DNA from: an uncultured Hyphomicrobiales bacterium
GTDB lineage: Bacteria; Pseudomonadota; Alphaproteobacteria; Rhizobiales; JACESI01
NCBI GenBank assembly: GCA_964553335.1
Contig: CAZKKW010000004.1
Location: 14,842 to 56,385, forward strand
DNA: 41,544 nt
Reading direction: 5' to 3'
Shown: one piece after another, positions 168-36,092 of the stretch
How positions within the stretch are numbered: the stretch's first letter is position 1
Layout: every line of letters begins with the position of its first letter
Made by a program: the position numbers and the translations under genes
Notes under the pieces: model-generated
What the model was told of the DNA's origin: nothing
The model's input: the letters and a program-made list of their open reading frames with translations, nothing else
Databases searched by the model: none

Positions 168-836
168 TTATAGTTTCCCCTCCGCCAGAATGATGCTTTT
201 CGGTTCTTGGATGGATTGAAACGGTTTTTTGCCCTGATACTCAAAGTGCTCAAATGAAATTTCTGCTCGTTTTATGTGGCCCAATTTGTTCAAGACAAAG
301 TGCTGTGTTGCGGCGGATGATAATTCGCCGATGACGGATTGATAGCCCAGTTTCTTTGCATTTGAGTGGGCAAACCCTCTCATCTCTTGGTAGATGCCTT
401 GCCCAAGATAAGCAGGTGCGATGGCTGCCATGTCTAAATAGGCGATTTCACCAAGCTTGGGTTTGCGTTGTTCAATAAAGGATTGGCACAGGGCCGTTGA
501 TAAGGCGCTGAGTGGTGCAAATTTGGGGGGCGTGGTGCTCTTGCTTTTTATGTGGTGATAAAAATCACAACCGATCAAACAACCAATCACCTCTTGTGTT
601 TTTGTATCAATCGCCACCACTGACAGGCCTGATGAAGCCATTTCTTCATAGGATGCTTTAAGGTAGGGGCGGTATTCTTCCAGACTAATGTTGAGCGCTT
701 TGTGCAAGGTGCTTGCGTTCACGAATACCTCGGTCACCAAGTCAAAAGCTGCTTGCTCATGGGTTGATGTGAGGGGATGGAACTGGATGGGCATGAGGTA
801 GCTTGCTTGTTGGAGACCATCGAAAGTCTCTATCAT
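168..836 (-). CDS. GNAT-family N-acetyltransferase (arylalkylamine N-acetyltransferase-like)
   Basis: Acetyl-CoA motif A (AIAPAYLGQGIY), C-terminal ELSSAATQ..LNKLGH. ATGA overlap with the upstream oxidase; the start could instead be the internal MPIQF. Confidence 0.75.
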   Translation of the reverse strand: MIETFDGLQQASYLMPIQFHPLTSTHEQAAFDLVTEVFVNASTLHKALNISLEEYRPYLKASYEEMASSGLSVVAIDTKTQEVIGCLIGCDFYHHIKSKSTTPPKFAPLSALSTALCQSFIEQRKPKLGEIAYLDMAAIAPAYLGQGIYQEMRGFAHSNAKKLGYQSVIGELSSAATQHFVLNKLGHIKRAEISFEHFEYQGKKPFQSIQEPKSIILAEGKL

Positions 837-19476: not shown

Positions 19477-19893
19477 CTAGCGTTGCCGATCTGTTTGTGT
19501 ACTTTGCGCCCACGTAAACCAAAAGTTGTTCAAACTTTCTGCTAGTGACCTATATTCAGCGGGCGATTGCGGCTTAACGATATAGGCATTTGCGCCTAGC
19601 TTTTGACTGTTTATGACGTCTTTTCTGGCGTCCGACCCTGAACAAACCAAAACGGGTATGGTGGCATAAGTCGAATTACCGCGTATTTCGCGCAGAACAT
19701 CATACCCACTGATACCTGGCATAACCAGATCAAGTATGATTAAATTTGGTGACCATTCGTTCAATATTTGGAGCGCTTTAGTCCCGTCGGACGCTCGAAT
19801 GACCTCTATTTCTGGATGGCATTTCGTAAGTGCCTTTTGTAGAAAGTCAGCATCTGTATCATCATCTTCTACAAGTAAAATACCAATACTCAT
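19477..19893 (-). CDS. Single-domain response regulator, Rcp1/RcpA-like
   Basis: LLVEDD, ILDLVMP, GANAYIVKP, C-terminal NFWF; ATGA overlap with the kinase. Confidence 0.9.
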   Translation of the reverse strand: MSIGILLVEDDDTDADFLQKALTKCHPEIEVIRASDGTKALQILNEWSPNLIILDLVMPGISGYDVLREIRGNSTYATIPVLVCSGSDARKDVINSQKLGANAYIVKPQSPAEYRSLAESLNNFWFTWAQSTQTDRQR

Positions 19894-21905
19894 GCTTCTG
19901 GAACTTCATCATTTGGCATTACTTTTGGCAAATTGAAATGGATGCTGGTTCCTTCTGAATAATCCGTATCAACCCAAATTCTACCACCGTGAGACTGAAT
20001 AATGCGTTGGCAAATTGCGAGCCCGACACCCTCTCCTTGTTGATGTAGGCCATCAGGTAGCCGTTGAAACATGCGAAAAACATTTGTTGCTTGGTCTTTC
20101 GGAATACCTATACCGTTGTCATTGAATTGAAAACTAATCATCATTTCTCCTTCTTGATACTTCAGATCAAACATGGGTGTTTTATCCGATCTATATTTGA
20201 TTGAATTTTCAATGAGATTGGTGAAAAGCTGAATGATCAAACTCTCATCCCCCTTTACCGACGGTAAGCCGCCGACGGGGAAGAAGGCGTTTGAGATATC
20301 GAATTTATCTTTGAGCTCCGCTTTTACTGTATGAAGCACCTTGTTAATCGAGACAGTTTTAAAAATAAGGCTATGGCGCCCAACACTTGCAAACTCGGTC
20401 AGGGTCCGCACCATGTTTTGTGCTTGTTGGGCTGATTCTATAATTTTAAGTGCGGTTTGTGTTGTTTGGTTGGGGTCATCAATATCTTCCAAGAGCAATT
20501 CAGCAAACAAATTCATATGCCGTATTGGGCGTTTGAGGTCATGAGCGACGATTGAGTTAAACTGATTTAGAATATCGTTTGTTTGTCGCAATTCAGCATT
20601 GGTTTCTTGAAGTTGGATTTCGGTGGATTTAATTTGATGGATTGAGATGAAAGAGATGGTGACGCCATCTTTGCCCGTTGGTACAGCGGAGACACGATGC
20701 CATCCATTAAGATGAGTTTCTTGCAAATAAGTTTCAAAAATAATCGGTTCACCAGTTTCTGCTACCCGCTTATATTTGTCGAAAATTCCTTGCTCTATTC
20801 GTTGTGGGAAATCGCCACGGATTGTTTTGCCAATTAGTGCTTCTGGTGTGCGGTTTAGTATTTTTCCAACAGTTGGATTGGCCGCAACAAATCGAAAATC
20901 AAAGATTTCTCCCATGGCGTCATAAATTGCCTGCATACTTAAAATGCCCGCTTCAGAAGAATCGAAAATAGCTTGGTTCAAGTCGGCCAGTTTCTTGAGG
21001 TGTTCCTCGTTATGTCGCTTTTCCGTGATGTCCATGCAAATTGCTATGAATATTTCATCATCACCCACATGATCTCTCTCTAAGCGAACATCGACTGGAT
21101 ATATTTCACCATTCTTTCGTTTGTGAAGTGAGCTAAAATGTTGTTGGGCTATCTCATTTGAACGCAGGGGGATTAAGAGCTTTTCTAATTCGTTCTTACC
21201 CATATCCACCTTAACGTCGAGAGGGCACATTTGCAGCATTTCTTCTTTGGTATATCCTAAATTATCGCAAGTTCGTTTGTTGACATACCGGTATTTCATT
21301 GTTGCGCCGTCTAGCACATAAAACTCGTTGCCTGACCGTTCAATCATACTGCCCAAATGAGCTGTTTGGTCTTCTGCGTCATGCAGCCTTTTCGACGTCT
21401 TCGTATATTCCATTGTTTGAGCGCGTAAGCTGTAATTTTCAAGCGTTGCAAGACAAACTCGGCCAAGATTAGCAAGGTTTTCTCGATCGCTGTCTGAAAA
21501 CTCTCTAGGTTTGGAATCAATGATACACAAGGCGCCGAGCTCGAGACCATTTTGCAAGATCAGTGGGAAACCTGCGTAGAATACGATGTTCGTTTCCCCA
21601 ACCATGGTTGGACGCGTTTTAAAAAATGTGTCTTTCGTTGCGTCTTCTACAACAAGAATTTCTTTATTTTTAAGGGCTACGCCACAAAACGAATCTTCTG
21701 CTGGTATGTGGACGAAGTTTGTGTCTTTAAGCGATGTAAATATCGGCTGATGTTTGCCAACTATGGTTACGACGGATTCAGGCACGTTGAAAATTGAACG
21801 AGCAAGCGTGGTAATATGATTCAGAGTTGGATCTTTTTCCGTCGTCGGCCATTCTAGATTTTGCTGTTCGGTTTTGTCAGGCTCATTTTTGACGTTTACG
21901 TTCAT
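19890..21905 (-). CDS. Cytoplasmic GAF-PAS-PAS sensor histidine kinase
   Basis: GAF (SFC..FYAGFPL..G.LC..D.KPR), two PAS domains, H-box AHDLKRP, N-box NLIENSIKY, DNGIGIP, GEGVGLAIC; no transmembrane segment. ATG 21905 has a GAGG ribosome-binding site. Confidence 0.92.
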   Translation of the reverse strand: MNVNVKNEPDKTEQQNLEWPTTEKDPTLNHITTLARSIFNVPESVVTIVGKHQPIFTSLKDTNFVHIPAEDSFCGVALKNKEILVVEDATKDTFFKTRPTMVGETNIVFYAGFPLILQNGLELGALCIIDSKPREFSDSDRENLANLGRVCLATLENYSLRAQTMEYTKTSKRLHDAEDQTAHLGSMIERSGNEFYVLDGATMKYRYVNKRTCDNLGYTKEEMLQMCPLDVKVDMGKNELEKLLIPLRSNEIAQQHFSSLHKRKNGEIYPVDVRLERDHVGDDEIFIAICMDITEKRHNEEHLKKLADLNQAIFDSSEAGILSMQAIYDAMGEIFDFRFVAANPTVGKILNRTPEALIGKTIRGDFPQRIEQGIFDKYKRVAETGEPIIFETYLQETHLNGWHRVSAVPTGKDGVTISFISIHQIKSTEIQLQETNAELRQTNDILNQFNSIVAHDLKRPIRHMNLFAELLLEDIDDPNQTTQTALKIIESAQQAQNMVRTLTEFASVGRHSLIFKTVSINKVLHTVKAELKDKFDISNAFFPVGGLPSVKGDESLIIQLFTNLIENSIKYRSDKTPMFDLKYQEGEMMISFQFNDNGIGIPKDQATNVFRMFQRLPDGLHQQGEGVGLAICQRIIQSHGGRIWVDTDYSEGTSIHFNLPKVMPNDEVPEA

Positions 21906-22016
21906 AAGATTTAGCCTCTGTCTCAAGATGGACTCGATTTTAGTTAAAACTTCACTGTATGTGGAATTTATACTTTCATCATCCGCAGTTTATGTCGGCT
22001 ACACGTTATATTGCAA

Positions 22017-22044
22017 TTGACATTAGTAATACTAATTATATGAG
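22017..22044 (+). promoter_or_regulatory. Candidate sigma70 promoter overlapped by a 7-1-7 palindrome
   Basis: TTGACA at 22017-22022; ATTAGTA-A-TACTAAT at 22022-22036; weak -10 TATGAG. Confidence 0.45.
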
Positions 22045-22063
22045 TAGTATAGGGGAGCACTAT

Positions 22064-22984
22064 ATGTTGCAAAATAAAGATCCGCGCGAACTCAATGTCC
22101 TCATATTGGATGATGATGAGGCTGACGTGCTTTTGTTAGAGCGTCAACTTGCAAAAGTTGAAGATTACGACTTCAACACTTTTTCTGCCAAAAATGGCAA
22201 TGAAGCTATTGCGATTTGTGGTTATGAAGACGTCGATATGGTGTTTTCAGATTTTGCATTGGCCGAAGGCAGTTGTGTGGATTTCTTGAGAGACCTGCGT
22301 CACCTTAAAGCGTCCGTGCCGATCGTTCTGGTATCAGGCATGCCTGGTCGATTTGTTCGCAGTCTAGGATTTCCTGCTGGTGCCAAAGCTTTTGTATCAA
22401 AGGATGATCTTTCACCAACCTTGATTGAAGCTGCGATAGATACAGCTGAACATGCATTGATGATCGAACAACAGCTCAGTCAACTTGTGCACAGTGTGCA
22501 AACAGCTTCGGTTGTTCGTGAAGATCGACTTTTTGATCTGTGTTCGGTCGTGAATGAATTTGTGAATACACTCGATAGTGACGTGAACGCTGTGCCAGCT
22601 TCATTGCGTCAAGACATGAATGACTTGAAAGAGTTGGTGGGTGAGTATACGCGACCAACCCGCGATACCACACCAAGCATTGCCTCTTCATCCTTTCAAG
22701 GGTCTCAGATGGAAGAACAGGCATTGGTTGGCGTGTTCAAAACTATGAGCCATTATTTTTTCGTCGATGAGGAGGACGGTGAGCCTTCAATCTCGACGCG
22801 ACATGATGAAAATTTGCTCATTATTGACGTTGTCTTGCCAGATAATATAACCGCCTCATCCCATAGTGAAGGGGTGAATACACTTGCTGATACGGCTCAA
22901 AAATTGGGTGGACGTCTGGAAATAAACAAAGACCTGTCTGGAACGATCTTTACGATTGAATTACCGGCTCAAAACGCTGAGTAA
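22064..22984 (+). CDS. Response regulator: receiver domain plus degenerate histidine-kinase-like C-terminus
   Basis: LILDDD..VFSD..VSG..SK receiver motifs; tail LGGRLEI..GTIFTIELP resembles the end of HATPase_c; GGGGAG ribosome-binding site before ATG 22064. Confidence 0.75.
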   Translation: MLQNKDPRELNVLILDDDEADVLLLERQLAKVEDYDFNTFSAKNGNEAIAICGYEDVDMVFSDFALAEGSCVDFLRDLRHLKASVPIVLVSGMPGRFVRSLGFPAGAKAFVSKDDLSPTLIEAAIDTAEHALMIEQQLSQLVHSVQTASVVREDRLFDLCSVVNEFVNTLDSDVNAVPASLRQDMNDLKELVGEYTRPTRDTTPSIASSSFQGSQMEEQALVGVFKTMSHYFFVDEEDGEPSISTRHDENLLIIDVVLPDNITASSHSEGVNTLADTAQKLGGRLEINKDLSGTIFTIELPAQNAE

Positions 22985-25920: not shown

Positions 25921-26235
25921 ATGAAAATTGTATCAAAACGGCACAACCAATATGAAACGAAACGGGTTCTGCCTGTTGAGTTCACTAAAAAAGCGGCGAA
26001 TGATGAGCGTTCTTTTGAAAAGCCCCCGCAATCGACCCGCCTCCACAAACCGATAAATCATTTTGCAGGTCAAAGTGCAATTTTGGCGCAAATCATCGTC
26101 TCTCGCGAAGATGAGACTGTGATCAATGGGTTTAATGCTGCACAAACACTTGCGGCAAACAGCGGCTATGGCGAAGCGTTAGACCGCAAGCAGGTACGGA
26201 TGAAAACAGGAAGTTATTTGGCTGATGTTGCCTAA
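25921..26235 (+). CDS. Hypothetical protein (104 aa)
   Basis: ATG-initiated ORF filling the gap between phaR and the coiled-coil gene; no family recognised. Confidence 0.55.
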   Translation: MKIVSKRHNQYETKRVLPVEFTKKAANDERSFEKPPQSTRLHKPINHFAGQSAILAQIIVSREDETVINGFNAAQTLAANSGYGEALDRKQVRMKTGSYLADVA

Positions 26236-26308
26236 TAAAATATTGTTTTTATCAGGCAACTCAGTGTTTGTTTTTGAATAGATAATATTACAGAGCTATT
26301 ATTTTTAT

Positions 26309-27670
26309 TTAATGACGTGCAGCAATGGCTTCTTCATCATTTGAAATTTTATTCGGAACCGTTAACAGGTCGATATTTACCTGGTTACTATTAACATCGG
26401 GCATGGAAACACGATACTCATTGATCAATTTTTTCAGCTGCTCATTCTGCTCGATCGCCTGTTCGTATCTTATTTTGGTGCCTTCTGCTTTTTTCGATTC
26501 TTCGTTTAATTTCTCGATGCGCGAAGTGAGATCGTGATTTTTATCTTGCTCTTGCTGTAATTCGAAAATGTTAGCATCATATTTCAGATTTAATTCCTGA
26601 AGCTTTGTATTGATTTCCTCAATTTCTTCACTGTAACGATCCTTTTGTATACGCATCTTTTCCAGATCATTTTCGGTTGTTTCAATGTGGCGAAAGCTTC
26701 TGATTTCCTTTTCTTTCAACGCTTTTACCTCTTTGATCTGTTCCTTGTGAGAAGTTTGGGAAAGTCTCAGTTGTGATCTGATATTCTCAATTTCTGTTTT
26801 CAAGGAAAACGTCATGTTGTGGTGTTTGCGTTTTGTAAGTTCGGCTTGCCGCTTTAAGTTGTCAATCTCATCTGTCGATGTGCCAATGAATGCTTCTAAT
26901 TTTGCGAAATCTTCCTTCAAGGCAATATACTTGGTATTGACGGCAGATACCTCTTGCGTCAAGGCATTGTTGTGCTCATTAAGAGTTTCAATGGTCTTGT
27001 CTTTTTCGCTGATTTCCGCATCTAGTTGGATCATTCGTTTGGATAATCCATCCAGTTCAAAACTGTAGCCATTCTTTTGATTGATGGCCACCTCTAGTTT
27101 GGTTTCTAAATCGGCACACTCATTTTCTTTTTGAAAAAGCTTATTTTTTTGGTTTTCATTTTCAGCAAGAGTGTCTTTGAAGAGATCTGCAGCTCTTTTA
27201 CTGCTTGTTTTAATGTTGAAAATGATTTCACGTGCTTCAGTAAGCGCTTCTTTGTTCGCTTGCTCCGAATTTGTAACAGTGGCAAGTTCAATTGAAAGTT
27301 CTTCTAATTCACTTGTTGCACGGCGTTTTTCATCTTCAATCTGCCGCATTTCAATGGCCGCAACTTGCATTTCCTTTTCCAACCTCAACTTGGACAGAAG
27401 TGTCGTTTTTGCTAGCGCACTTAGGTGCTCAATAGCAGAATGGTTTTTGGAAATTTCTGCAGTTTGTTCGGAAATGTGGTTGACTACGTCACCAACCTTG
27501 CGCGCCCGGTATATATCTTTTTCTAATTTCATCATTTCGTCGTTTCGAGAGAAATCCTCGATAAAATCGGTGGTTTCTTCCGATGGTTCATTCGACAATG
27601 AAAGATCTGGTTTTGTTTGATTTAGGGGGAAATTTTTAGGTTCATTTGCACTCGAAAAAATACTAAACAT
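26309..27670 (-). CDS. Long coiled-coil protein, crescentin/intermediate-filament-like
   Basis: About 453 aa from ATG 27670 (MFSIFSS): Pro-containing head, Pro-free E/K/L-rich heptad rod of about 390 aa, short tail, no transmembrane segment or ATPase motif. Confidence 0.7.
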   Translation of the reverse strand: MFSIFSSANEPKNFPLNQTKPDLSLSNEPSEETTDFIEDFSRNDEMMKLEKDIYRARKVGDVVNHISEQTAEISKNHSAIEHLSALAKTTLLSKLRLEKEMQVAAIEMRQIEDEKRRATSELEELSIELATVTNSEQANKEALTEAREIIFNIKTSSKRAADLFKDTLAENENQKNKLFQKENECADLETKLEVAINQKNGYSFELDGLSKRMIQLDAEISEKDKTIETLNEHNNALTQEVSAVNTKYIALKEDFAKLEAFIGTSTDEIDNLKRQAELTKRKHHNMTFSLKTEIENIRSQLRLSQTSHKEQIKEVKALKEKEIRSFRHIETTENDLEKMRIQKDRYSEEIEEINTKLQELNLKYDANIFELQQEQDKNHDLTSRIEKLNEESKKAEGTKIRYEQAIEQNEQLKKLINEYRVSMPDVNSNQVNIDLLTVPNKISNDEEAIAARH

Positions 27671-28081
27671 TATACGCCTATAAAAATACAATTAATTTAT
27701 GAGGCGAGTTTTTATTGAATTAAATTATGAATGTAAACCTATAATCTCAAATGAGGTGGATGATTTACGTGTATTTGATCGTGAAATGAAGTTAATTGAA
27801 TTTGTATGCCATTGAATTATTTAAGCTTATTTTTCAAAATAATATTATGCACAGTTAGTCCACATTTATACGATAAATTTTTTTCGGTTATATTTATATC
27901 AATTTAAGGTTGATATTGTTTTTACTTCAACTTTTAGTTGCTCTCTGCTGTGACGGTTTTTTGACTTATTCATAAATGGGTTTCTAAGTTGGAAGGAGTA
28001 CGTCCAAATAAACGCCTCAATGCCCCGCCTTCAACCAGTATCTTCTAATTTTTGACAGTAAATTGCCGATTTATTGCTGAC

Positions 28082-29917
28082 TTAAGCGTCCATTGCTTCC
28101 AATTGATCGATAAAGCCTTCGATTAACGACAGACCTTTTTGCCAAAAAGCTGGGTCAGCTGCATCAAGTCCGAATGGTGCAAGTAACTCGGAATGGTGTT
28201 TTGTACCGCCGGCTTTTAGAAGGTCGAAATATTTTTCCTGAAAACCATCTTCAGCGCCTTCGTAAACGGCATAAAGCGAGTTTACGAGGCAGTCACCGAA
28301 TGCATAGGCATAGACGTAAAATGGTGAATGGATGAAGTGCGGAATATAAGTCCAGAATGTCTCATAGCCTTCACCGCAGACGATTGCTGGGCCTAAGCTT
28401 TCTTTTTGAACACCCATCCAGATGTCACCAATTTGCTCTGACGTCAGCTCGCCTTCGCGCCGTGCTGTGTGGACACGTCGTTCAAAGGTGTAAAATGCGA
28501 TTTGGCGCACCACCGTGTTGAGCATGTCCTCAACCTTGGAGGCGAGCATGATTTTGCGCTCTTGCTTGTCTTCAATACCATCCAAGATAGAGCGGAAAGT
28601 GAGCATCTCACCAAACACGCTGGCCGTTTCTGCAAGCGTTAGCGGTGTGGGGGCCATTAAAGCCCCTTGTGGGCTTGCTAGCACTTGGTGCACGCCGTGG
28701 CCGAGCTCATGGGCAAGTGTCATCACATCACGAATTTTGCCTTGATAATTCATCAAAACATAAGGGTGGGCGCTTGGCACGGTTGGGTGGGAGAAAGCGC
28801 CGGGCGCTTTGCCTTCACGCACAGGTGCATCAATCCAACCCTTGTTGAAGAAGTCTGCTGCAATGTCGCGCATTTCAGGGGAGAAGGCGCCATAGGCTGA
28901 TAGGATCGTTTCTTGGGCGCTTTCCCATGTAATTGGTTTTGTTTCTTTGCGCGGGAGTGGTGCGTTGCGGTCCCAATGGTTCAAGGTTTCTTGACCGAGC
29001 CACTTTGCTTTGAGTTTATAGTAGCGATGAGAAAGGCGCGGGTAGGCGTCGCTCACGGCTTTTTCCAGCGCGTCAACGACCTCGCGTTCAACGCGGTTTG
29101 CAAGGTGGCGGCTATCTGCCACATCTTCAAAACCACGCCAGCGGTCAGAAATTTCATTGTCTTTTGCAAGTGTGTTGGTGATGAGTGTGAAAAGGCGCAG
29201 ATTTTCGCCAAACACTTTGGCAAGTGCATCAGATGCTTGCTTGCGCTTCGCCCCATCATCATTGACCAAAAGATTGAGCGTTTGTTCAAGAGCAAGGCTC
29301 GTGCCGTCAACGTCAAAGCGCAGAGCAGCCATTGTCTCGTCAAACAGTCGATTAAAAGCACCACGACCTGTGACAGATTTTTCGAGGAATAATTCCTCGG
29401 TTTTTTCATCCAGTTGGTAAGGTTTATCAAGGCGCAAATCTTCAAACCATGGGCGATAATAGGCAAGGCCCTCATGGGTCAGCGCTGATTCAATGATGTC
29501 ATCGTCAATGGTGTTGAGTTCGAGGCCAAAAAACAAAAGGTTCGAGCTAATCGTTGTGATTTGCTCATTCATATCGCCATAAAATTTGGCGCGCACTGGG
29601 TCTGATGTGTTGCTTGCATAAGACAGGCCTGCAAATGAACCGATACGGCCAAGACGGTCTTGTAAAGCTTCGAATTGTTTGATCGCGGTAAAAAGGTCAT
29701 CAGGAGAGTTTTTCGCAAACTCTTCGAGTTTTCCGCGATAGGTGGCCGCGAATTCTTCGGCCTCTTTGGTTGATAATTCTAAGTCCTTTTCTAACTCAGC
29801 GCTGCCAATCGCCGGATAAAGGTCGCTCAAGTCCCATTCTGGCAAATTACCTAAGTCGATCTCTTGTGCGGTGGCGGTGTTTTGAGAGTGAGCGGGGTGA
29901 GGCAGGGAAAAAGGCAC
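28082..29917 (-). CDS. pepF: M3B-family oligoendopeptidase F
   Basis: WDLSDLY, GK..GAF, TLAHELGHGVH zinc motif, LAETASVFGE, IPHF..PFYVYAY; GTG start with GGAG. Confidence 0.93.
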   Translation of the reverse strand: MPFSLPHPAHSQNTATAQEIDLGNLPEWDLSDLYPAIGSAELEKDLELSTKEAEEFAATYRGKLEEFAKNSPDDLFTAIKQFEALQDRLGRIGSFAGLSYASNTSDPVRAKFYGDMNEQITTISSNLLFFGLELNTIDDDIIESALTHEGLAYYRPWFEDLRLDKPYQLDEKTEELFLEKSVTGRGAFNRLFDETMAALRFDVDGTSLALEQTLNLLVNDDGAKRKQASDALAKVFGENLRLFTLITNTLAKDNEISDRWRGFEDVADSRHLANRVEREVVDALEKAVSDAYPRLSHRYYKLKAKWLGQETLNHWDRNAPLPRKETKPITWESAQETILSAYGAFSPEMRDIAADFFNKGWIDAPVREGKAPGAFSHPTVPSAHPYVLMNYQGKIRDVMTLAHELGHGVHQVLASPQGALMAPTPLTLAETASVFGEMLTFRSILDGIEDKQERKIMLASKVEDMLNTVVRQIAFYTFERRVHTARREGELTSEQIGDIWMGVQKESLGPAIVCGEGYETFWTYIPHFIHSPFYVYAYAFGDCLVNSLYAVYEGAEDGFQEKYFDLLKAGGTKHHSELLAPFGLDAADPAFWQKGLSLIEGFIDQLEAMDA

Positions 29918-30068: not shown

Positions 30069-30084
30069 TTAAGAGCGCATTAAC
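30069..30084 (+). promoter_or_regulatory. CtrA-binding box (consensus)
   Basis: TTAA-gagcgca-TTAAC about 80 bp upstream of the sigma-54 activator, with GATTC (GANTC) at 30086-30090. Confidence 0.75.
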
Positions 30085-31829: not shown

Positions 31830-33650
31830 GTGAAATCGAAACAAGGTCTAAATTGGATGATTCTAAAACGTTTTTTGCTTGTTAGCACCGCACTTGCCAT
31901 GACCGCTACAGTGGTTTTGACAAATGACGTGGACGCGCAGTCTTCCGAGACCTTAGAGGAAACAAAGCTCGCAGCTTTGACAGGGGCTGAAAGTACGCTT
32001 GCTCAACCAGAGCTGTTGAAGGTACAAAAACACGCAACCCTTTCGACACCACTTTCTGATACCGATAAACTGCTCAATAATGCGCCTGAAGCTGATAATG
32101 CGCCTGAAACTGGTGATGTGGATGCTTTCATACCTGAGACGGCTGCTAATGATGCTGTCGCTGTGGCGATTGAGAGCATTGTCGGCGAACTCTACAATAC
32201 AGGTGATGCTGTTGATCGCAAAAATCGCGAAGCAATTGCCGATTTTTATGGTGAGCGCGGTTACCAACCTGTTTGGGTTAAAGACGGTGTTTTAACGCAA
32301 GAAGCCAATCTTTTGATTGAGCGGCTTAATGATGCTGCCATCGATGGTTTGGATCCATCTGACTATCCCGTTTATGAGCTTGATGGCTTTGAAGATGCTG
32401 ATTCAGTTGCAGGCGCGGAAATGCAATTGACGGAGACGCTTCTTAAATATGCTCGCCACGCACAAGGTGGCCGATTGATCCCAAGCAAAGTAAGCAACGG
32501 TTTTAAAAATAAGCCCGTTTACCCAGAGCCTGCGGAAGTATTGGTGAAGATTGCAAACAGTGTCGACAAAGTCGCGGCCCTGTCTAGCTACAATCCTCCG
32601 CATAAGGGTTTTAAGGCACTAAAAGCAGAACTTGCACGGTTGCAAGCGGCAACTGCCGTTGAGCCTAATGTCATCATTCCCGCTGGGGACACCCTTTATA
32701 AAGGTGTGCGCAGTGACCGCGTTGCTATATTGCGCGAGCGATTGAATGTGCCGGTGATTAACAACGAAGATCCGAGAAAATTCGACAAGCCGCTTCAAGC
32801 GGCAGTTCGTGCTTTCCAAAAAGAACATCATCTTGTTGCTGACGCTGTTGTCGGCGCAAAGACGTTGAGGTTTTTGAACGGCAAAACGAGCAATCGGGTC
32901 CATGACATTGTCGCAAATATGGAACGCTGGCGTTGGTTGCCGCGTGACATGGGCAATTTGCATGTTGTGTCGAATATTCCTTCTTATAATGCGACCGTTT
33001 ATAAGAATGGCGAGAATATTCACCGCACCCGCGTGGTGGTTGGTAAAACCAAACACGCCACACCAATCTTTTCAGACCACATGGAATTTGTGGTCGTGAA
33101 TCCACATTGGAATGTGCCGTATTCAATCGCTTCTAAAGAGCTGTTGCCGAAGATTAGATCCAACCCATCCTATGTGAGTAGCCGCAATTACGAAATTCTT
33201 CGTGGTGGACGTGTGGTTGATCCAACATCGGTCAATTGGGATGAAAACAGTTTCAGGAAAGTGCGTATTCGCCAGAAACCGGGTGGCCGTAATGCGCTTG
33301 GTCTTGTGAAGTTCTTGTTCCCGAATGAACATGCGATTTATTTCCACGATACGCCGTCAAAAAGCCTTTTCCAACGTGTCTCACGGGCCTACAGCCACGG
33401 GTGTGTGCGCATTCATAACCCATTTAAATTTGGCGATGTGTTGATGAAACATGCAAAAGGTTGGGATAACGGCCGTTTGCGCTCAATGGTTGGTGGTAGA
33501 GAAAAGTACATTAAGCTCAAAGGTGATGAGCGCATTCAAGTGCACTTAACCTACTTCACGGCTGTTGCTGATGAAGATGGAAAAATCTCATATAAATCAG
33601 ATCTTTATGGACACCATAAGCGTGTAAAACGTGCGCTTGGGCTTCTGTAA
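31830..33650 (+). CDS. L,D-transpeptidase (YcbB/LdtD-type: scaffold, peptidoglycan-binding and YkuD domains)
   Basis: Signal peptide, DGLDP.DY, AVRAFQ..H.L..D..VG, NMERWRW, NALG.VKF.FPN, HDT..SHGCVR; alternative start ATG 31857. Confidence 0.93.
   Translation: MKSKQGLNWMILKRFLLVSTALAMTATVVLTNDVDAQSSETLEETKLAALTGAESTLAQPELLKVQKHATLSTPLSDTDKLLNNAPEADNAPETGDVDAFIPETAANDAVAVAIESIVGELYNTGDAVDRKNREAIADFYGERGYQPVWVKDGVLTQEANLLIERLNDAAIDGLDPSDYPVYELDGFEDADSVAGAEMQLTETLLKYARHAQGGRLIPSKVSNGFKNKPVYPEPAEVLVKIANSVDKVAALSSYNPPHKGFKALKAELARLQAATAVEPNVIIPAGDTLYKGVRSDRVAILRERLNVPVINNEDPRKFDKPLQAAVRAFQKEHHLVADAVVGAKTLRFLNGKTSNRVHDIVANMERWRWLPRDMGNLHVVSNIPSYNATVYKNGENIHRTRVVVGKTKHATPIFSDHMEFVVVNPHWNVPYSIASKELLPKIRSNPSYVSSRNYEILRGGRVVDPTSVNWDENSFRKVRIRQKPGGRNALGLVKFLFPNEHAIYFHDTPSKSLFQRVSRAYSHGCVRIHNPFKFGDVLMKHAKGWDNGRLRSMVGGREKYIKLKGDERIQVHLTYFTAVADEDGKISYKSDLYGHHKRVKRALGLL
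32077..32108 (+). repeat. Short in-frame tandem duplication in the L,D-transpeptidase linker
   Basis: ATAATGCGCCTGAA twice with an 18-nt period (NNAPEA/DNAPET). Confidence 0.6.
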
Positions 33651-33822: not shown

Positions 33823-33908
33823 GCTAAACACCGATAATAGAAACTGGGGAAGCTGAAGTTGTGCTAAGTATCGGTGTAGGAACAACGCTTTTGAGAAACA
33901 ACATTGTA

Positions 33909-36092
33909 ATGAATTTTGCGCAGCGCGCATTTGCGCGGGCTCTTGGTAAATCAAAAGCGGTGAAAAGATTGGCGAACGCCACGCTTTCCGCAGCGCTTAG
34001 CATTGGCGTATTGGTTGCTCCAATTCCGTATCAAGGTGTTAGTGAAGCGAATGCCGCTGGCGGCACGCGTACCCTTTGGGTTCATTTTACCCATACGGGT
34101 GAAGAGAAAAAGATCACCTTCCGTCGCAATGGCCGTTATGTCCAAAAAGGCCTTAGAGAGCTTGAGTGGATTGTGAGAGATTTCCGCCGTAAGCAATCGA
34201 CGAAGATGGACCCACGCTTGTTTGACCTGATCTGGTCTGTCTATCAAGAGTCAGGCGCCACAAAAGCGATCCGTGTTGTTTCTGGTTATCGTTCTTTGAA
34301 AACAAACAATCAACTTCGTCGTCGCTCACGCGGTGTTGCAAGAACCAGCCAACATACAGCTGGTAAAGCGATGGATTTCTTCATCCCAGGCGTGCCTGTT
34401 CGCCGATTGCGTGAAATTGGTCTGCGTCTCCAGGCCGGAGGTGTTGGCTATTATCCTGGTTCAAGAACACCTTTCGTGCATATGGATACGGGACGTGTGC
34501 GCCATTGGCCGCGCATGACACCCAAACAGCTTGCGCGTGTTTTCCCGAAAGGCAAAACGCTGCACGTGTCAACAAATGGCCGCAAGCTTGCTCGTTATTC
34601 ACAAGCGCTTGCTGAATATAATGCGAATAAGAAGCGCGTCATTCAGCCGTTGAGCAAATCGAAACGCACAGTCATCGCCTCTGCTTCTAAGAAAAAGAAG
34701 AAAAATGGTGGCGTCCTTGCTGGTCTGTTTGGCAAGAAGAAAAACACTGCAGTGACAGCCACGGCGGAAAAACCAATTGTTGTAGCTGCGAAGGTGCGTA
34801 AGAAACCTGCGCCAGCGAAAAAGGTGCCGGTTCCTGTGAAAAGGGCACCAACGCCTGAGCAAAAAGTTCCAGCGACAACGCCAGCCGTTATTGCAAATAG
34901 GCTTGATCCAAATGATACAACGCCGATCCCATCCCGTGTTGGTCGTGTTGATGAACCACCAAAAGCAACGCAACAAGCAACTTCAAAACCAGTTGGTGCG
35001 CCGTTAGCGCTTGCTGCTGCCAATGTGCCTGCACCGCGTGCTTTGCCAAGCGGACTGCGTGAACAATTTGCACCGCCTTCTGCCATTGTGATTGCCAAAG
35101 CACCAACACCGCAACTGCGTCCTGATTATGCGCCAACAAACTTAGAAGTTGGTCAACCTCAAGTGATCGCAGCTAATATCGCACCTAGTGCAAATGAAAG
35201 CTCAGTTGCGATTGATCCGACGAAAACGGCAGCTCTTACGCGCGAAAGCTTTAAAGTGCCGACGCCGGAAGTTGTTAGAAATCGTCTAGGCAGTGCGAGT
35301 GACCCGACCCAATTGGTTTTGAATGAAACACCTAGAAAGAAGCCTGAGCTTGCTCAACCGGCAACGCCGACGCTTGCCTATGCTGTTGCAAATCCACCTG
35401 CAGCTCGCATAAGCGCAGATTCGTTTAATGATCGCTTTGGAAGCTTTAATGCTGACATTCGTTCCGGCAATTTACCACCTGTAAAACCTGCCGCTGAGAC
35501 AAAGAAGATTGCGAAAGTTAAAGCCGCGCCGAAAGCCAAAGAAGCGCCTAAGGAAGAGTTTAATCGCTTTGCAGCATTTGATGAAGTGACGCCAGCGGCA
35601 ACTGTGACATTGAAAGGTTTGGACCTTGGTGAATCGAGCCGTAGTTTAGCTCTTCGCAAATCACTGGGTGTGCCTGATACGGTGGAGCTTCGCAAAAAAC
35701 TGCTTAAGACGCAGCATGCGAACCTTACACCGCCAGCGCCAATTCCGACTCCTCGTCGAACAAACCCCGCTCCTACGAACCCTGTTAAATTAGCTGAATC
35801 GTTGACAGACACAGCGGCAAAATTGGATTTTTCTGGTGAGCACAAGCAGATCGTAACGGCGCTTCTTGCAAAAGCCTCATTGCTTGACGAAACGCACAGC
35901 AAGTTGGCATTACCAAAGCCGAACAAGATGCCAAGCTTGTTTGTTAGTCCAAGCCGTACCTTCAAAGGTGCATTCACGGTTGCATCTAGCAAAGGCTTTG
36001 AGACGAAGTTTGAGGGTGATGCAATCGCGATCACACCAACGGTTGATTTCAGTGCGGGCACGGGCCTAAAAGTTACTTGGTTACAAAACTAA
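33909..36092 (+). CDS. DUF882/YcbK (MepK-like, peptidase M15) protein with a long low-complexity C-terminal extension
   Basis: MDPRLFD, SGYRS..TN, SQH..GKAMDF, GGVGYYP, FVHMDTG..R.W. Start uncertain (33861 or 33909). Confidence 0.88.
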   Translation: MNFAQRAFARALGKSKAVKRLANATLSAALSIGVLVAPIPYQGVSEANAAGGTRTLWVHFTHTGEEKKITFRRNGRYVQKGLRELEWIVRDFRRKQSTKMDPRLFDLIWSVYQESGATKAIRVVSGYRSLKTNNQLRRRSRGVARTSQHTAGKAMDFFIPGVPVRRLREIGLRLQAGGVGYYPGSRTPFVHMDTGRVRHWPRMTPKQLARVFPKGKTLHVSTNGRKLARYSQALAEYNANKKRVIQPLSKSKRTVIASASKKKKKNGGVLAGLFGKKKNTAVTATAEKPIVVAAKVRKKPAPAKKVPVPVKRAPTPEQKVPATTPAVIANRLDPNDTTPIPSRVGRVDEPPKATQQATSKPVGAPLALAAANVPAPRALPSGLREQFAPPSAIVIAKAPTPQLRPDYAPTNLEVGQPQVIAANIAPSANESSVAIDPTKTAALTRESFKVPTPEVVRNRLGSASDPTQLVLNETPRKKPELAQPATPTLAYAVANPPAARISADSFNDRFGSFNADIRSGNLPPVKPAAETKKIAKVKAAPKAKEAPKEEFNRFAAFDEVTPAATVTLKGLDLGESSRSLALRKSLGVPDTVELRKKLLKTQHANLTPPAPIPTPRRTNPAPTNPVKLAESLTDTAAKLDFSGEHKQIVTALLAKASLLDETHSKLALPKPNKMPSLFVSPSRTFKGAFTVASSKGFETKFEGDAIAITPTVDFSAGTGLKVTWLQN

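Follow-up and report, generated by a model that had tools for sequence, protein, structure and literature searches.

The textbook example of a bacterial counterpart to intermediate filaments is crescentin (CreS), whose origin and range are not yet settled. The question raised by the locus described here is whether that range takes in a gene for a long coiled-coil protein on the chromosome of an uncultured member of the Hyphomicrobiales. The stretch analysed, referred to below as the window, comprises 41,544 nucleotides of this bacterium (GenBank assembly GCA_964553335.1, contig CAZKKW010000004.1), and the gene in question, on its reverse strand, encodes a protein of 453 amino acids (aa), hereafter the rod protein, which a sequence-only reading of the DNA had proposed as a crescentin-like filament protein outside the Caulobacterales. 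As a novelty this proposal is outdated: PMC12700997 (2025) reports a fully supported clade of PF19220 (Rod_CreS) proteins across 13 Hyphomicrobiales families, crescentin in a rhizobial-type host is no longer new, and by the PF19220 model the rod protein is not a crescentin. What remains is an uncharacterised, coiled-coil-rich family with a crescentin-like segment plan in the same order as the true crescentins; the feature common to the two is architecture and not detectable sequence kinship. The function that we hold to be just on the probable side is that of a stand-alone, self-assembling, membrane-tethered structural coiled-coil rod protein.

The rod gene is real, and it belongs to a small and so far unnamed family. 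Its open frame (26309..27691, reverse strand) would encode 460 aa from a TTG start; an in-frame ATG at position 27670, giving 453 aa, is taken as the start because homologues begin at the equivalent Met, with the N-termini MFSIFFN, MFNIFFN and MFSIFSK, and MGIFSK or MGLFSK in more distant relatives. Prolines occur at residues 11, 15, 21 and 29 and next at 424 and 439, with a 394-residue Pro-free stretch between. The sequence-only reading had described a protein of about 453 aa with an MFSIFSS start, a Pro-containing head, a Pro-free rod and a short tail, encoded in DNA richer in AT than its neighbours, and both descriptions are borne out. The fraction of G+C (GC) is 0.35-0.39 across 26001-28000 (0.348 for 27001-28000) against 0.43-0.51 on both sides, and the block that carries the gene, an insertion or deletion (indel) discussed below, has 35.8% GC against 48.6% and 47.8% in its flanks.

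A phmmer search of 1.84 billion representative proteins returned 19 relatives at E ≤ 0.001, 11 of them at E ≤ 1e-10 and 5 at E ≤ 1e-30, most of them 437-502 aa long and aligned from about residue 55 to residue 425. In alignments of 15 and of 41 sequences the family members, 20-57% identical, run collinear from end to end, with conserved rod positions at R281, K282, N285, an EIxNLxSQ stretch, NLxY364, K/I400 and Y419; R281, K282 and N285 are nearly invariant in the larger alignment, as is F5 of the N-terminal peptide. As far as searched, the family is one of marine Hyphomicrobiales (Roseibium, Labrenzia, Stappia, Tepidamorphus and a few more). Full-length matches were found in 13 of the 401 sampled genomes of the order, representing 7 of 149 genera, and a match was present in three of nine genomes of the taxonomic family, the source genome (G000) included. 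A scan of named genomes with the member from genome G058 as query yielded 48 loci, nearly all of them in Roseibium/Labrenzia, while single loci carried the titles Stappia, Tepidamorphus, Rhodobacterales bacterium and Pseudomonadota bacterium; the named-genome scan with the window protein as query yielded no locus. No characterised member was found in searches of structure, protein and model libraries, and a literature search under crescentin and related terms, not exhaustive and excluding the supplements of PMC12700997, found no paper on the family. The ESM Atlas returned generic coiled-coil clusters only. A word-indexed search with the 41-sequence profile returned 8 proteins (E ≤ 10), none of which linked the family to crescentins, a result of little weight, since Roseibium members were missed too. 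PF24161, annotated on two relatives, was set aside as a generic eukaryotic CCDC39 coiled coil with no match in this genome.

The possibility raised by the sequence-only reading, that the protein belongs to the crescentin family, did not withstand comparison with decoys. Rod_CreS is formally the first Pfam match of the rod protein, but its 17.5 bits (E 0.0022) fall far short of the cut-off, 100, and the match covers model positions 52-139 only, of 359; the matched part is the gap-free stretch that the earlier reading had aligned with CreS. True crescentins reach 100-394 bits over positions 1-359, and unrelated proteins of the HlyD and OmpA families and M23 peptidases reach 19.3-30.3 bits. The four Rod_CreS matches listed in this genome are other open reading frames (ORFs), the best of the HlyD and the second of the OmpA family, and elsewhere in the class HlyD-family, OmpA-family and M23 peptidase proteins rise to 28.5-30.3 bits. 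At E ≤ 10 the model matches 12 of 14 control genomes, the cut-off being passed by Caulobacter vibrioides only. Within the rod family, only 2 of 15 members match Rod_CreS at E ≤ 0.05, and other Pfam coils were hit more widely: TPR_MLP1_2 in six members, and CENP-F, Filament (PF00038) and APG6_N in five each, the Filament matches being weak (best E 0.0002). Sub-threshold matches to Rod_CreS should not be read as evidence of crescentin when decoys are lacking. The SMC models of NCBIfam score the rod protein at 35.7 bits (SMC_prok_A, E 2e-9) and 33.7 bits, with cut-offs of 729 and 567. In the PDB, phmmer with the rod protein did not place crescentin among its eight matches at E ≤ 10, and the 15-sequence profile ranked it 11-12 (19.9 bits, E 0.003), behind a membrane protein, designed coiled coils, prefoldin, keratins, a tropomyosin fusion and BAP31; keratin fragments scored 20-21 bits, like other coils.

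Reciprocal searches gave the same picture. True crescentins, collected by the Pfam cut-off, came from 9 of 201 genomes in the order of genome G766 (2 genera), and in the window's own order PF19220 proteins passed the cut-off in 5 of the 401 sampled genomes, with one more at 83 bits; these searches agree with the occurrence in Caulobacteraceae and Hyphomicrobiales reported in PMC12700997. When the 5870 ORFs of at least 100 aa in the source genome were searched, the rod ORF was absent from the 167 matches (E ≤ 100) of a nine-sequence CreS hidden Markov model (HMM), was not listed by the HMM of Hyphomicrobiales crescentins, and stood tenth, at 6.1 bits with a bias of 44.9, for the combined 15-sequence crescentin HMM. 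Conversely, the family profile found matches in three of five crescentin-bearing genomes and the crescentin gene in none of the five, and in a direct HMM search six Hyphomicrobiales crescentin-like proteins scored -9.1 to 10.5 bits. In one carrier of a true crescentin (G183), the best match of the family profile lies in a 497-aa frame (G183:C6:93498-93896, reverse strand; 16.2 bits, E 0.005), which is not the crescentin gene.

At the level of single sequences, the CreS strings used in the original alignment are present in CreS proteins from genomes that pass the Pfam cut-off (HLKAIEPL at 58, NALLQ at 148, DVEGL at 177, NQDNALL at 203, DLARL at 226, LESQVEANRAE at 269, LQATIERL at 413 and ALAEG at 425). 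The gap-free stretch of some 80 residues likewise exists, at an offset of 28 residues or four heptads, but its 17 identities in 83 positions (BLOSUM62 sum 58) are no better than coiled-coil chance: a non-collinear diagonal of the same pair sums to 61, and CreS against the SMC protein of this genome to 56 over 83 residues. In Smith-Waterman alignment the rod protein scores 109 with CreS and 101 with CreS reversed; heptad-class shuffles give 83 ± 11, 5 of 200 equalling or exceeding the real value, and hhalign of the rod protein alone against the CreS profile gives 21.9, within the range of 14.2-22.6 spanned by 14 other coiled ORFs of the genome. At the sequence level CreS thus scores no better than generic coiled coils or shuffles, the outcome that the sequence-only reading had itself named in advance as refuting it. 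Every sequence test that was run leaves the rod protein outside the crescentin family, and none demonstrates common descent.

Profile-profile comparison locates what the two families do share. Against Caulobacter-type CreS, the rod family reached an hhalign probability of 86% and a score of 53 over 254 columns at 13-14% identity; the controls gave 30 with one alignment reversed, 41 with both reversed and 32 ± 6 after shuffling of 28-column blocks (maximum 44.6, 0 of 40 at the real score). Against six Hyphomicrobiales crescentin-like proteins, the score was 90 (probability 97%, 360 columns), compared with 62 for the reversed alignment, 81.5 for reversed against reversed, and 24 ± 4, 41 ± 9 and 51 ± 8 for block shuffles of 7, 28 and 70 columns, none of 25 each reaching the real score. 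As a positive control, Caulobacter-type and Hyphomicrobiales crescentins scored 180 over 433 columns, twice the value of the family pair. Single crescentin-like sequences scored 20.5-49.1 on the family profile, SMC arms 13-22 and a chemoreceptor profile 18.9. When individual diagonals were followed, off-diagonal and reversed pairings scored as high as collinear ones over 80-150 columns; over 250 columns one collinear diagonal stood out (30.4 vs 13.9), because it is the only one with both long segments in phase.

These segments are visible in the predicted structure and in the heptad pattern. AlphaFold2, run with the 41-sequence alignment, predicts a single helix from residue 46 to residue 418 with a mean predicted local distance difference test (pLDDT) score of 75, rising above 90 over residues about 90-260; residues 1-47 and 415-453 fall below 50, so head and tail are predicted to be disordered. 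From the usual rise per residue, the 373-residue rod is estimated to be about 55 nm long. The homodimer prediction score of 0.27-0.28, against a mark of 0.42, gives no evidence either way. Pfam and NCBIfam detect no further domain in the protein, only coiled-coil models, all of them sub-threshold, and the 10 other strongly coiled ORFs scanned in this genome are nine chemoreceptors and one SMC protein, with no other stand-alone rod protein among them. To follow heptad phase along the family alignment, a simple scoring of hydrophobic a/d positions was used; the method is crude and yet usable because it recovers the published stutter of CreS: it places a +4 shift at 402/403 in Caulobacter-type CreS, where PMC10873595 gives 406-409 (403-406 is also quoted), about 38 residues before the rod end. 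In the rod protein, it delimits segments at 52-80, 96-285, 286-391 and 392-421, joined by net shifts of +3, then +4 at 285/286 and then +3 at 391/392. At the +4 shift, the hydrophobic core columns 276 and 287 stand 11 residues apart, and this gap coincides with the conserved RKH(D/H)N stretch. Written as segment lengths and shifts, the plan of this family is 29 aa / +3 / 190 / +4 / 106 / +3 / 30, that of a Hyphomicrobiales crescentin-like protein 35 / +3 / 205 / +4 / 143 / +4 / 50 or more, and that of Caulobacter-type CreS 24 / +3 / about 170-190 / +4 / 137 / +4 / 49.

Of the crescentin-like reading, the intermediate-filament-like build and a similar segment pattern therefore stand, and family membership falls: the rod protein has the architecture of the class, a long coiled-coil rod with no enzymatic or globular domain. 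By analogy with bacterial intermediate-filament-like proteins, it would form parallel dimers, and these would build up filaments or a lattice with no need of nucleotides. The short N-terminal peptide is a candidate membrane-targeting sequence, and, if the analogy with the MFSK peptide of bactofilins holds, peptides arrayed along such an assembly would tether it to the inner face of the cytoplasmic membrane.

Several points weigh against this reading and against the crescentin resemblance on which it draws. Dimer, filament and membrane binding are, for every member of the family, inferred by analogy. When heptads were shuffled within the phase segments, so that the architecture was kept, hhalign scores were 70.9 ± 7.5 and 1 of 30 shuffles reached the real value of 87.2; most of the excess over scrambled controls thus lies in compatible positions of the heptad discontinuities, and little of it in residue order. 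The reversed crescentin alignment still obtains a probability of 92.6%, which means that hhalign probabilities are inflated for long coiled coils, and comparisons of this kind need both reversed and architecture-preserving shuffles as controls. The natural decoys were the chemoreceptor profile and the SMC arms only, none of them a long continuous dimeric rod, and the rarity of the shared plan is not gauged by them. The discontinuity near the rod end, at 391/392 and so some 30 residues short of that end, with a hydrophobic gap of 10 residues at 371-381, is +3 in the rod family and +4 in crescentins, where the near-terminal +4 stutter is needed for function (PMC3087291). The window copy, MFSIFSS, lacks the lysine of the FSK motif and has its first Lys at residue 12, so that its membrane peptide may be weak. 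Finally, a single-sequence query detected a copy, at 30% identity, in only one of the five other genomes of the same genus and none in the remaining four, which implies that the protein is dispensable in close relatives.

In a blastn comparison of the window with the two closest genomes of the genus (G003 and G002), the flanks align at 84-86% identity and the block with the rod gene is absent; about 20 bp stand in its place between the pepF stop codon and conserved downstream DNA. The block begins directly after the pepF stop codon (28082), its far end falls inside the hairpin listed in the table, and it holds no integrase, no transposase and no flanking repeat of note. At 52 other loci the family gene and the DNA on either side match in GC content (mean difference -0.006, range -0.043 to +0.049), whereas here the gene lies about 12 GC points below its flanks. 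From the foreign composition of the block, its absence in the nearest relatives and the match in GC content at the other loci, the window copy was most likely acquired horizontally, from an AT-richer relative. The rod gene stands alone: no conserved gene neighbourhood exists between the window and 10 other loci, Pfam shows unrelated housekeeping genes among 30 neighbouring ORFs, those scanned at nine of the 52 loci included, and small ORFs adjoining the rod gene resemble each other in just two genomes, both of one genus.

That the protein might be a true but very divergent crescentin, descended from a PF19220 ancestor and forming a one-sided filament that bends the cell, seems to us quite improbable, although a good deal speaks for it. 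The order of segments and shifts is equal through the first three elements and total lengths are similar; the hhalign score of 90 over 360 collinear columns lies above every control that scrambles the architecture, and is itself a rise from the 50-53 obtained with Caulobacter-type CreS alone; the family profile scores crescentin-like sequences at up to 49.1, and SMC arms and the chemoreceptor profile at 22 at most; the N-terminal peptides are alike (MSSIFRR and MSSLFRK vs MFSIFSS and MGIFSK); crescentin-like proteins occur in the same order (PMC12700997), and the two families are never found in one taxonomic family in the sample. Against it stand the Rod_CreS score far below the cut-off, under the range of unrelated proteins and with most members unmatched, the positive control at twice the score of the family pair, crescentin HMMs that rank the rod ORF tenth or omit it, a family profile that never picks a crescentin gene and gives Hyphomicrobiales crescentin-like proteins 10.5 bits at most in direct search, the equality of off-diagonal, reversed and collinear pairings over 80-150 columns, and a near-terminal discontinuity of +3 in place of the functional +4 stutter (PMC3087291). 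Roseibium, Labrenzia and Stappia, moreover, are described as plain rods. Another version is that the family is a deeply diverged sister of crescentin that kept an ancestral segment plan (about 30 aa, +3, about 190 aa, stutter) and membrane peptide while its sequence drifted out of the reach of HMMs, and that it builds membrane-bound crescentin-type filaments in marine Hyphomicrobiales described as straight rods; to this we assign a low probability.

A non-polymerising adaptor or spacer, serving as a scaffold at the pole or division site or as a tether through the RKHDN and NLxY motifs and the terminal peptides, is another unlikely explanation, and no computational result separates it from the filament reading. 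Many bacterial coiled-coil proteins of this size are adaptors; moreover, the most conserved positions here are polar surface motifs in mid-rod and near the rod end and not in the core only, and head and tail hold short conserved peptides typical of docking motifs. Yet no conserved neighbour gene hints at a partner, and an uninterrupted rod of 373 residues without any other domain exceeds what most adaptors need. The position of the gene within a 1.85-kb AT-rich indel invites the thought that a mobile element or phage brought it as cargo, for instance as a fragment of tape-measure type or as part of a defence system, and that it plays no cytoskeletal role, the more so as crescentin itself may derive from phage tape-measure proteins (PMC12700997). 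This we regard as very improbable indeed: none of three family members tested matches a PHROGs family at E ≤ 0.01, PADLOC reports weak matches to SMC-like arms only (LmuB/JetC arms, 12-21 bits), the block lacks the marks of a mobile element, and at the other loci the gene has the GC content of its chromosome and, where scanned, housekeeping neighbours. The structural rod protein remains the preferred reading. Should its likeness to crescentin reflect descent, the lineage of crescentin extends beyond what Pfam detects; should it reflect convergence, this segment plan is a preferred way of building a membrane-tethered rod. Were the sister relationship true, the crescentin-type cytoskeleton would be older and more widespread and would serve more than curvature, and it could move between genomes as a single-gene cassette, as the indel suggests.

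The features of the locus are collected in the following table.

Table 1. Features of the rod gene and its surroundings, in window coordinates
Feature	Position	Strand	Remarks
Coding sequence of the 453-aa coiled-coil rod protein	26309..27670	-	stop codon 26309-26311; ATG backed by homologue N-termini and intact relatives
N-terminal peptide MFSIFSS, residues 1-7	27650..27670	-	family consensus M-G-[IL]-F-S-K; candidate membrane-targeting peptide
Rest of head, residues 8-45	27536..27649	-	Pro-containing, acidic, predicted disordered; poorly conserved in alignments
Rod, residues 46-418 (373 aa)	26417..27535	-	one predicted uninterrupted alpha-helix with heptad repeats
Conserved polar stretch with R-K-H-[DH]-N motif, residues 277-287	26810..26842	-	11-residue core gap, equal to a +4 stutter
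Tail, residues 419-453 (about 35 residues)	26312..26416	-	predicted disordered
AT-rich upstream spacer, 411 bp	27671..28081		from pepF stop to start codon; presumably holds the promoter
Stable hairpin, 45 nt past the stop codon	26222..26264	-	candidate terminator without U tract
1855-bp indel with the rod gene and spacers only	26228..28082		block missing from G003 and G002

The 98-nt stretch with the hairpin folds at -23 kcal/mol (z-score -5.7), and none of 200 shuffles folds as well; a scan for promoters and terminators at the rod gene gave no signal above shuffles. No CtrA-type box, for which we take TTAA-N7-TTAA to be the pattern, was found upstream of the rod gene; the sole match in the window lies at 30069, with 0.77 expected by chance. 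The source assembly (2.83 Mb, 238 contigs) is 91% complete, and the window is otherwise ordinary alphaproteobacterial chromosome, with genes for acetyl-CoA synthetase, purK, tyrosine and methionine biosynthesis, phaR-phaA-phaB, an NtrX-like regulator, an L,D-transpeptidase and pyruvate kinase. The DNA of the stretch is contained in four sequencing runs of a single marine-metagenome study, two of which may be its source, and in no RNA run among those listed. A phasin-like role on polyhydroxyalkanoate granules, which the neighbouring phaR, phaA and phaB might suggest, was rejected: the adjacency exists only in this genome and is a product of the indel.

Some neighbours merit a word of their own. 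A 104-aa ORF between phaR and the indel (25921-26235, forward strand) has no Pfam match, and its DNA belongs to the flank that aligns with G003 and G002 at 84-86%; a genuine small gene and non-coding DNA under conservation are both possible readings. A 743-aa protein (33861-36092, forward strand) has DUF882/M15 peptidase as its only recognised domain (residues 65-216), leaving some 500 residues unexplained, and adjoins the L,D-transpeptidase, which carries a Scaffold domain (31830-33650, forward strand). In another genome of the genus (G005), a gene for an M15/DUF882 peptidase (L030:5942-7027) immediately precedes the family homologue and shares its strand; this may be a matter of chance or else hint weakly at cell-wall remodelling. 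At 19890-22984, a GAF-PAS-HisKA-HATPase histidine kinase (678 aa, reverse strand) sits beside a 341-aa response regulator of which only residues 47-155 match a receiver domain; the regulator is present in G003 and G002 too, and the DNA of the pair has about 42% GC against about 49% around it. A 222-aa ORF at 168-836 (reverse strand) matches no Pfam family at E ≤ 1e-5.

Among known systems, the arms of SMC, Rad50 and JetC proteins give the highest-scoring named models, yet the rod protein has no ATPase head or hinge: Pfam finds no SMC_N or AAA domain in it, the matches to SMC/Rad50 are to arm regions, and its predicted helix is single, with no fold-back. This similarity is that of generic coiled coils and serves as the noise level for the other comparisons. 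Membership of the eukaryotic intermediate filament family (PF00038) was considered and dropped, the rod protein having no match to that model at E ≤ 10.

FilP and Ccrp proteins, as presented in PMC2680258 and PMC2776988, form a class defined by architecture together with nucleotide-independent assembly; the rod family has the architectural half of that definition, and no search run revealed a sequence relation to either. For bactofilins, PMC12448750 describes a membrane-targeting peptide, MFSKQAKS (consensus MFSKKKK), of low affinity, which binds stably only when arrayed on a polymer and which can replace the membrane segment of crescentin. The rod-family peptides MGIFSK and MFSIFSK share Met, Phe, Ser and Lys with it; the motif is shifted two to three residues from the N-terminus, and the remainder of the protein is unrelated to the bactofilin beta-helix. 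In CreS, the first 27 residues attach the filament to the membrane. The rod family has a conserved short hydrophobic peptide at this end, in the window copy without a basic residue before Lys12, and crescentin-like N-termini (MSSIFRR, MSSLFRK, MRLLSK) resemble MFSIFSS and MGIFSK.

Crescentin remains the closest counterpart in build. The differences are an identity of only 14-15%, mostly heptad-driven, a second rod segment that is about 30 residues shorter in the rod family, the RKHDN and NLxY motifs, which are absent from crescentins, and, near the rod end, a +3 discontinuity in place of the functional +4 stutter, the +4 shift of the rod family lying in mid-rod (285/286). The likenesses are a length of 453-500 aa against 444-540 aa in CreS and crescentin-like proteins, an uninterrupted rod of 373 residues, as predicted, against about 364 in CreS (PMC10873595), the crescentin layout of disordered head, long rod and short tail, which the predicted helix 46-418 reproduces, and a matching order of segments and shifts up to and including the mid-rod +4 shift. 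According to PMC12700997, a homologue from Chelatococcus reniformis restores curvature in a creS deletion, and creS occurs in 23.8% of Caulobacteraceae species; the patchy, accessory distribution within genera reported there for crescentins is the one seen in the rod family as well.

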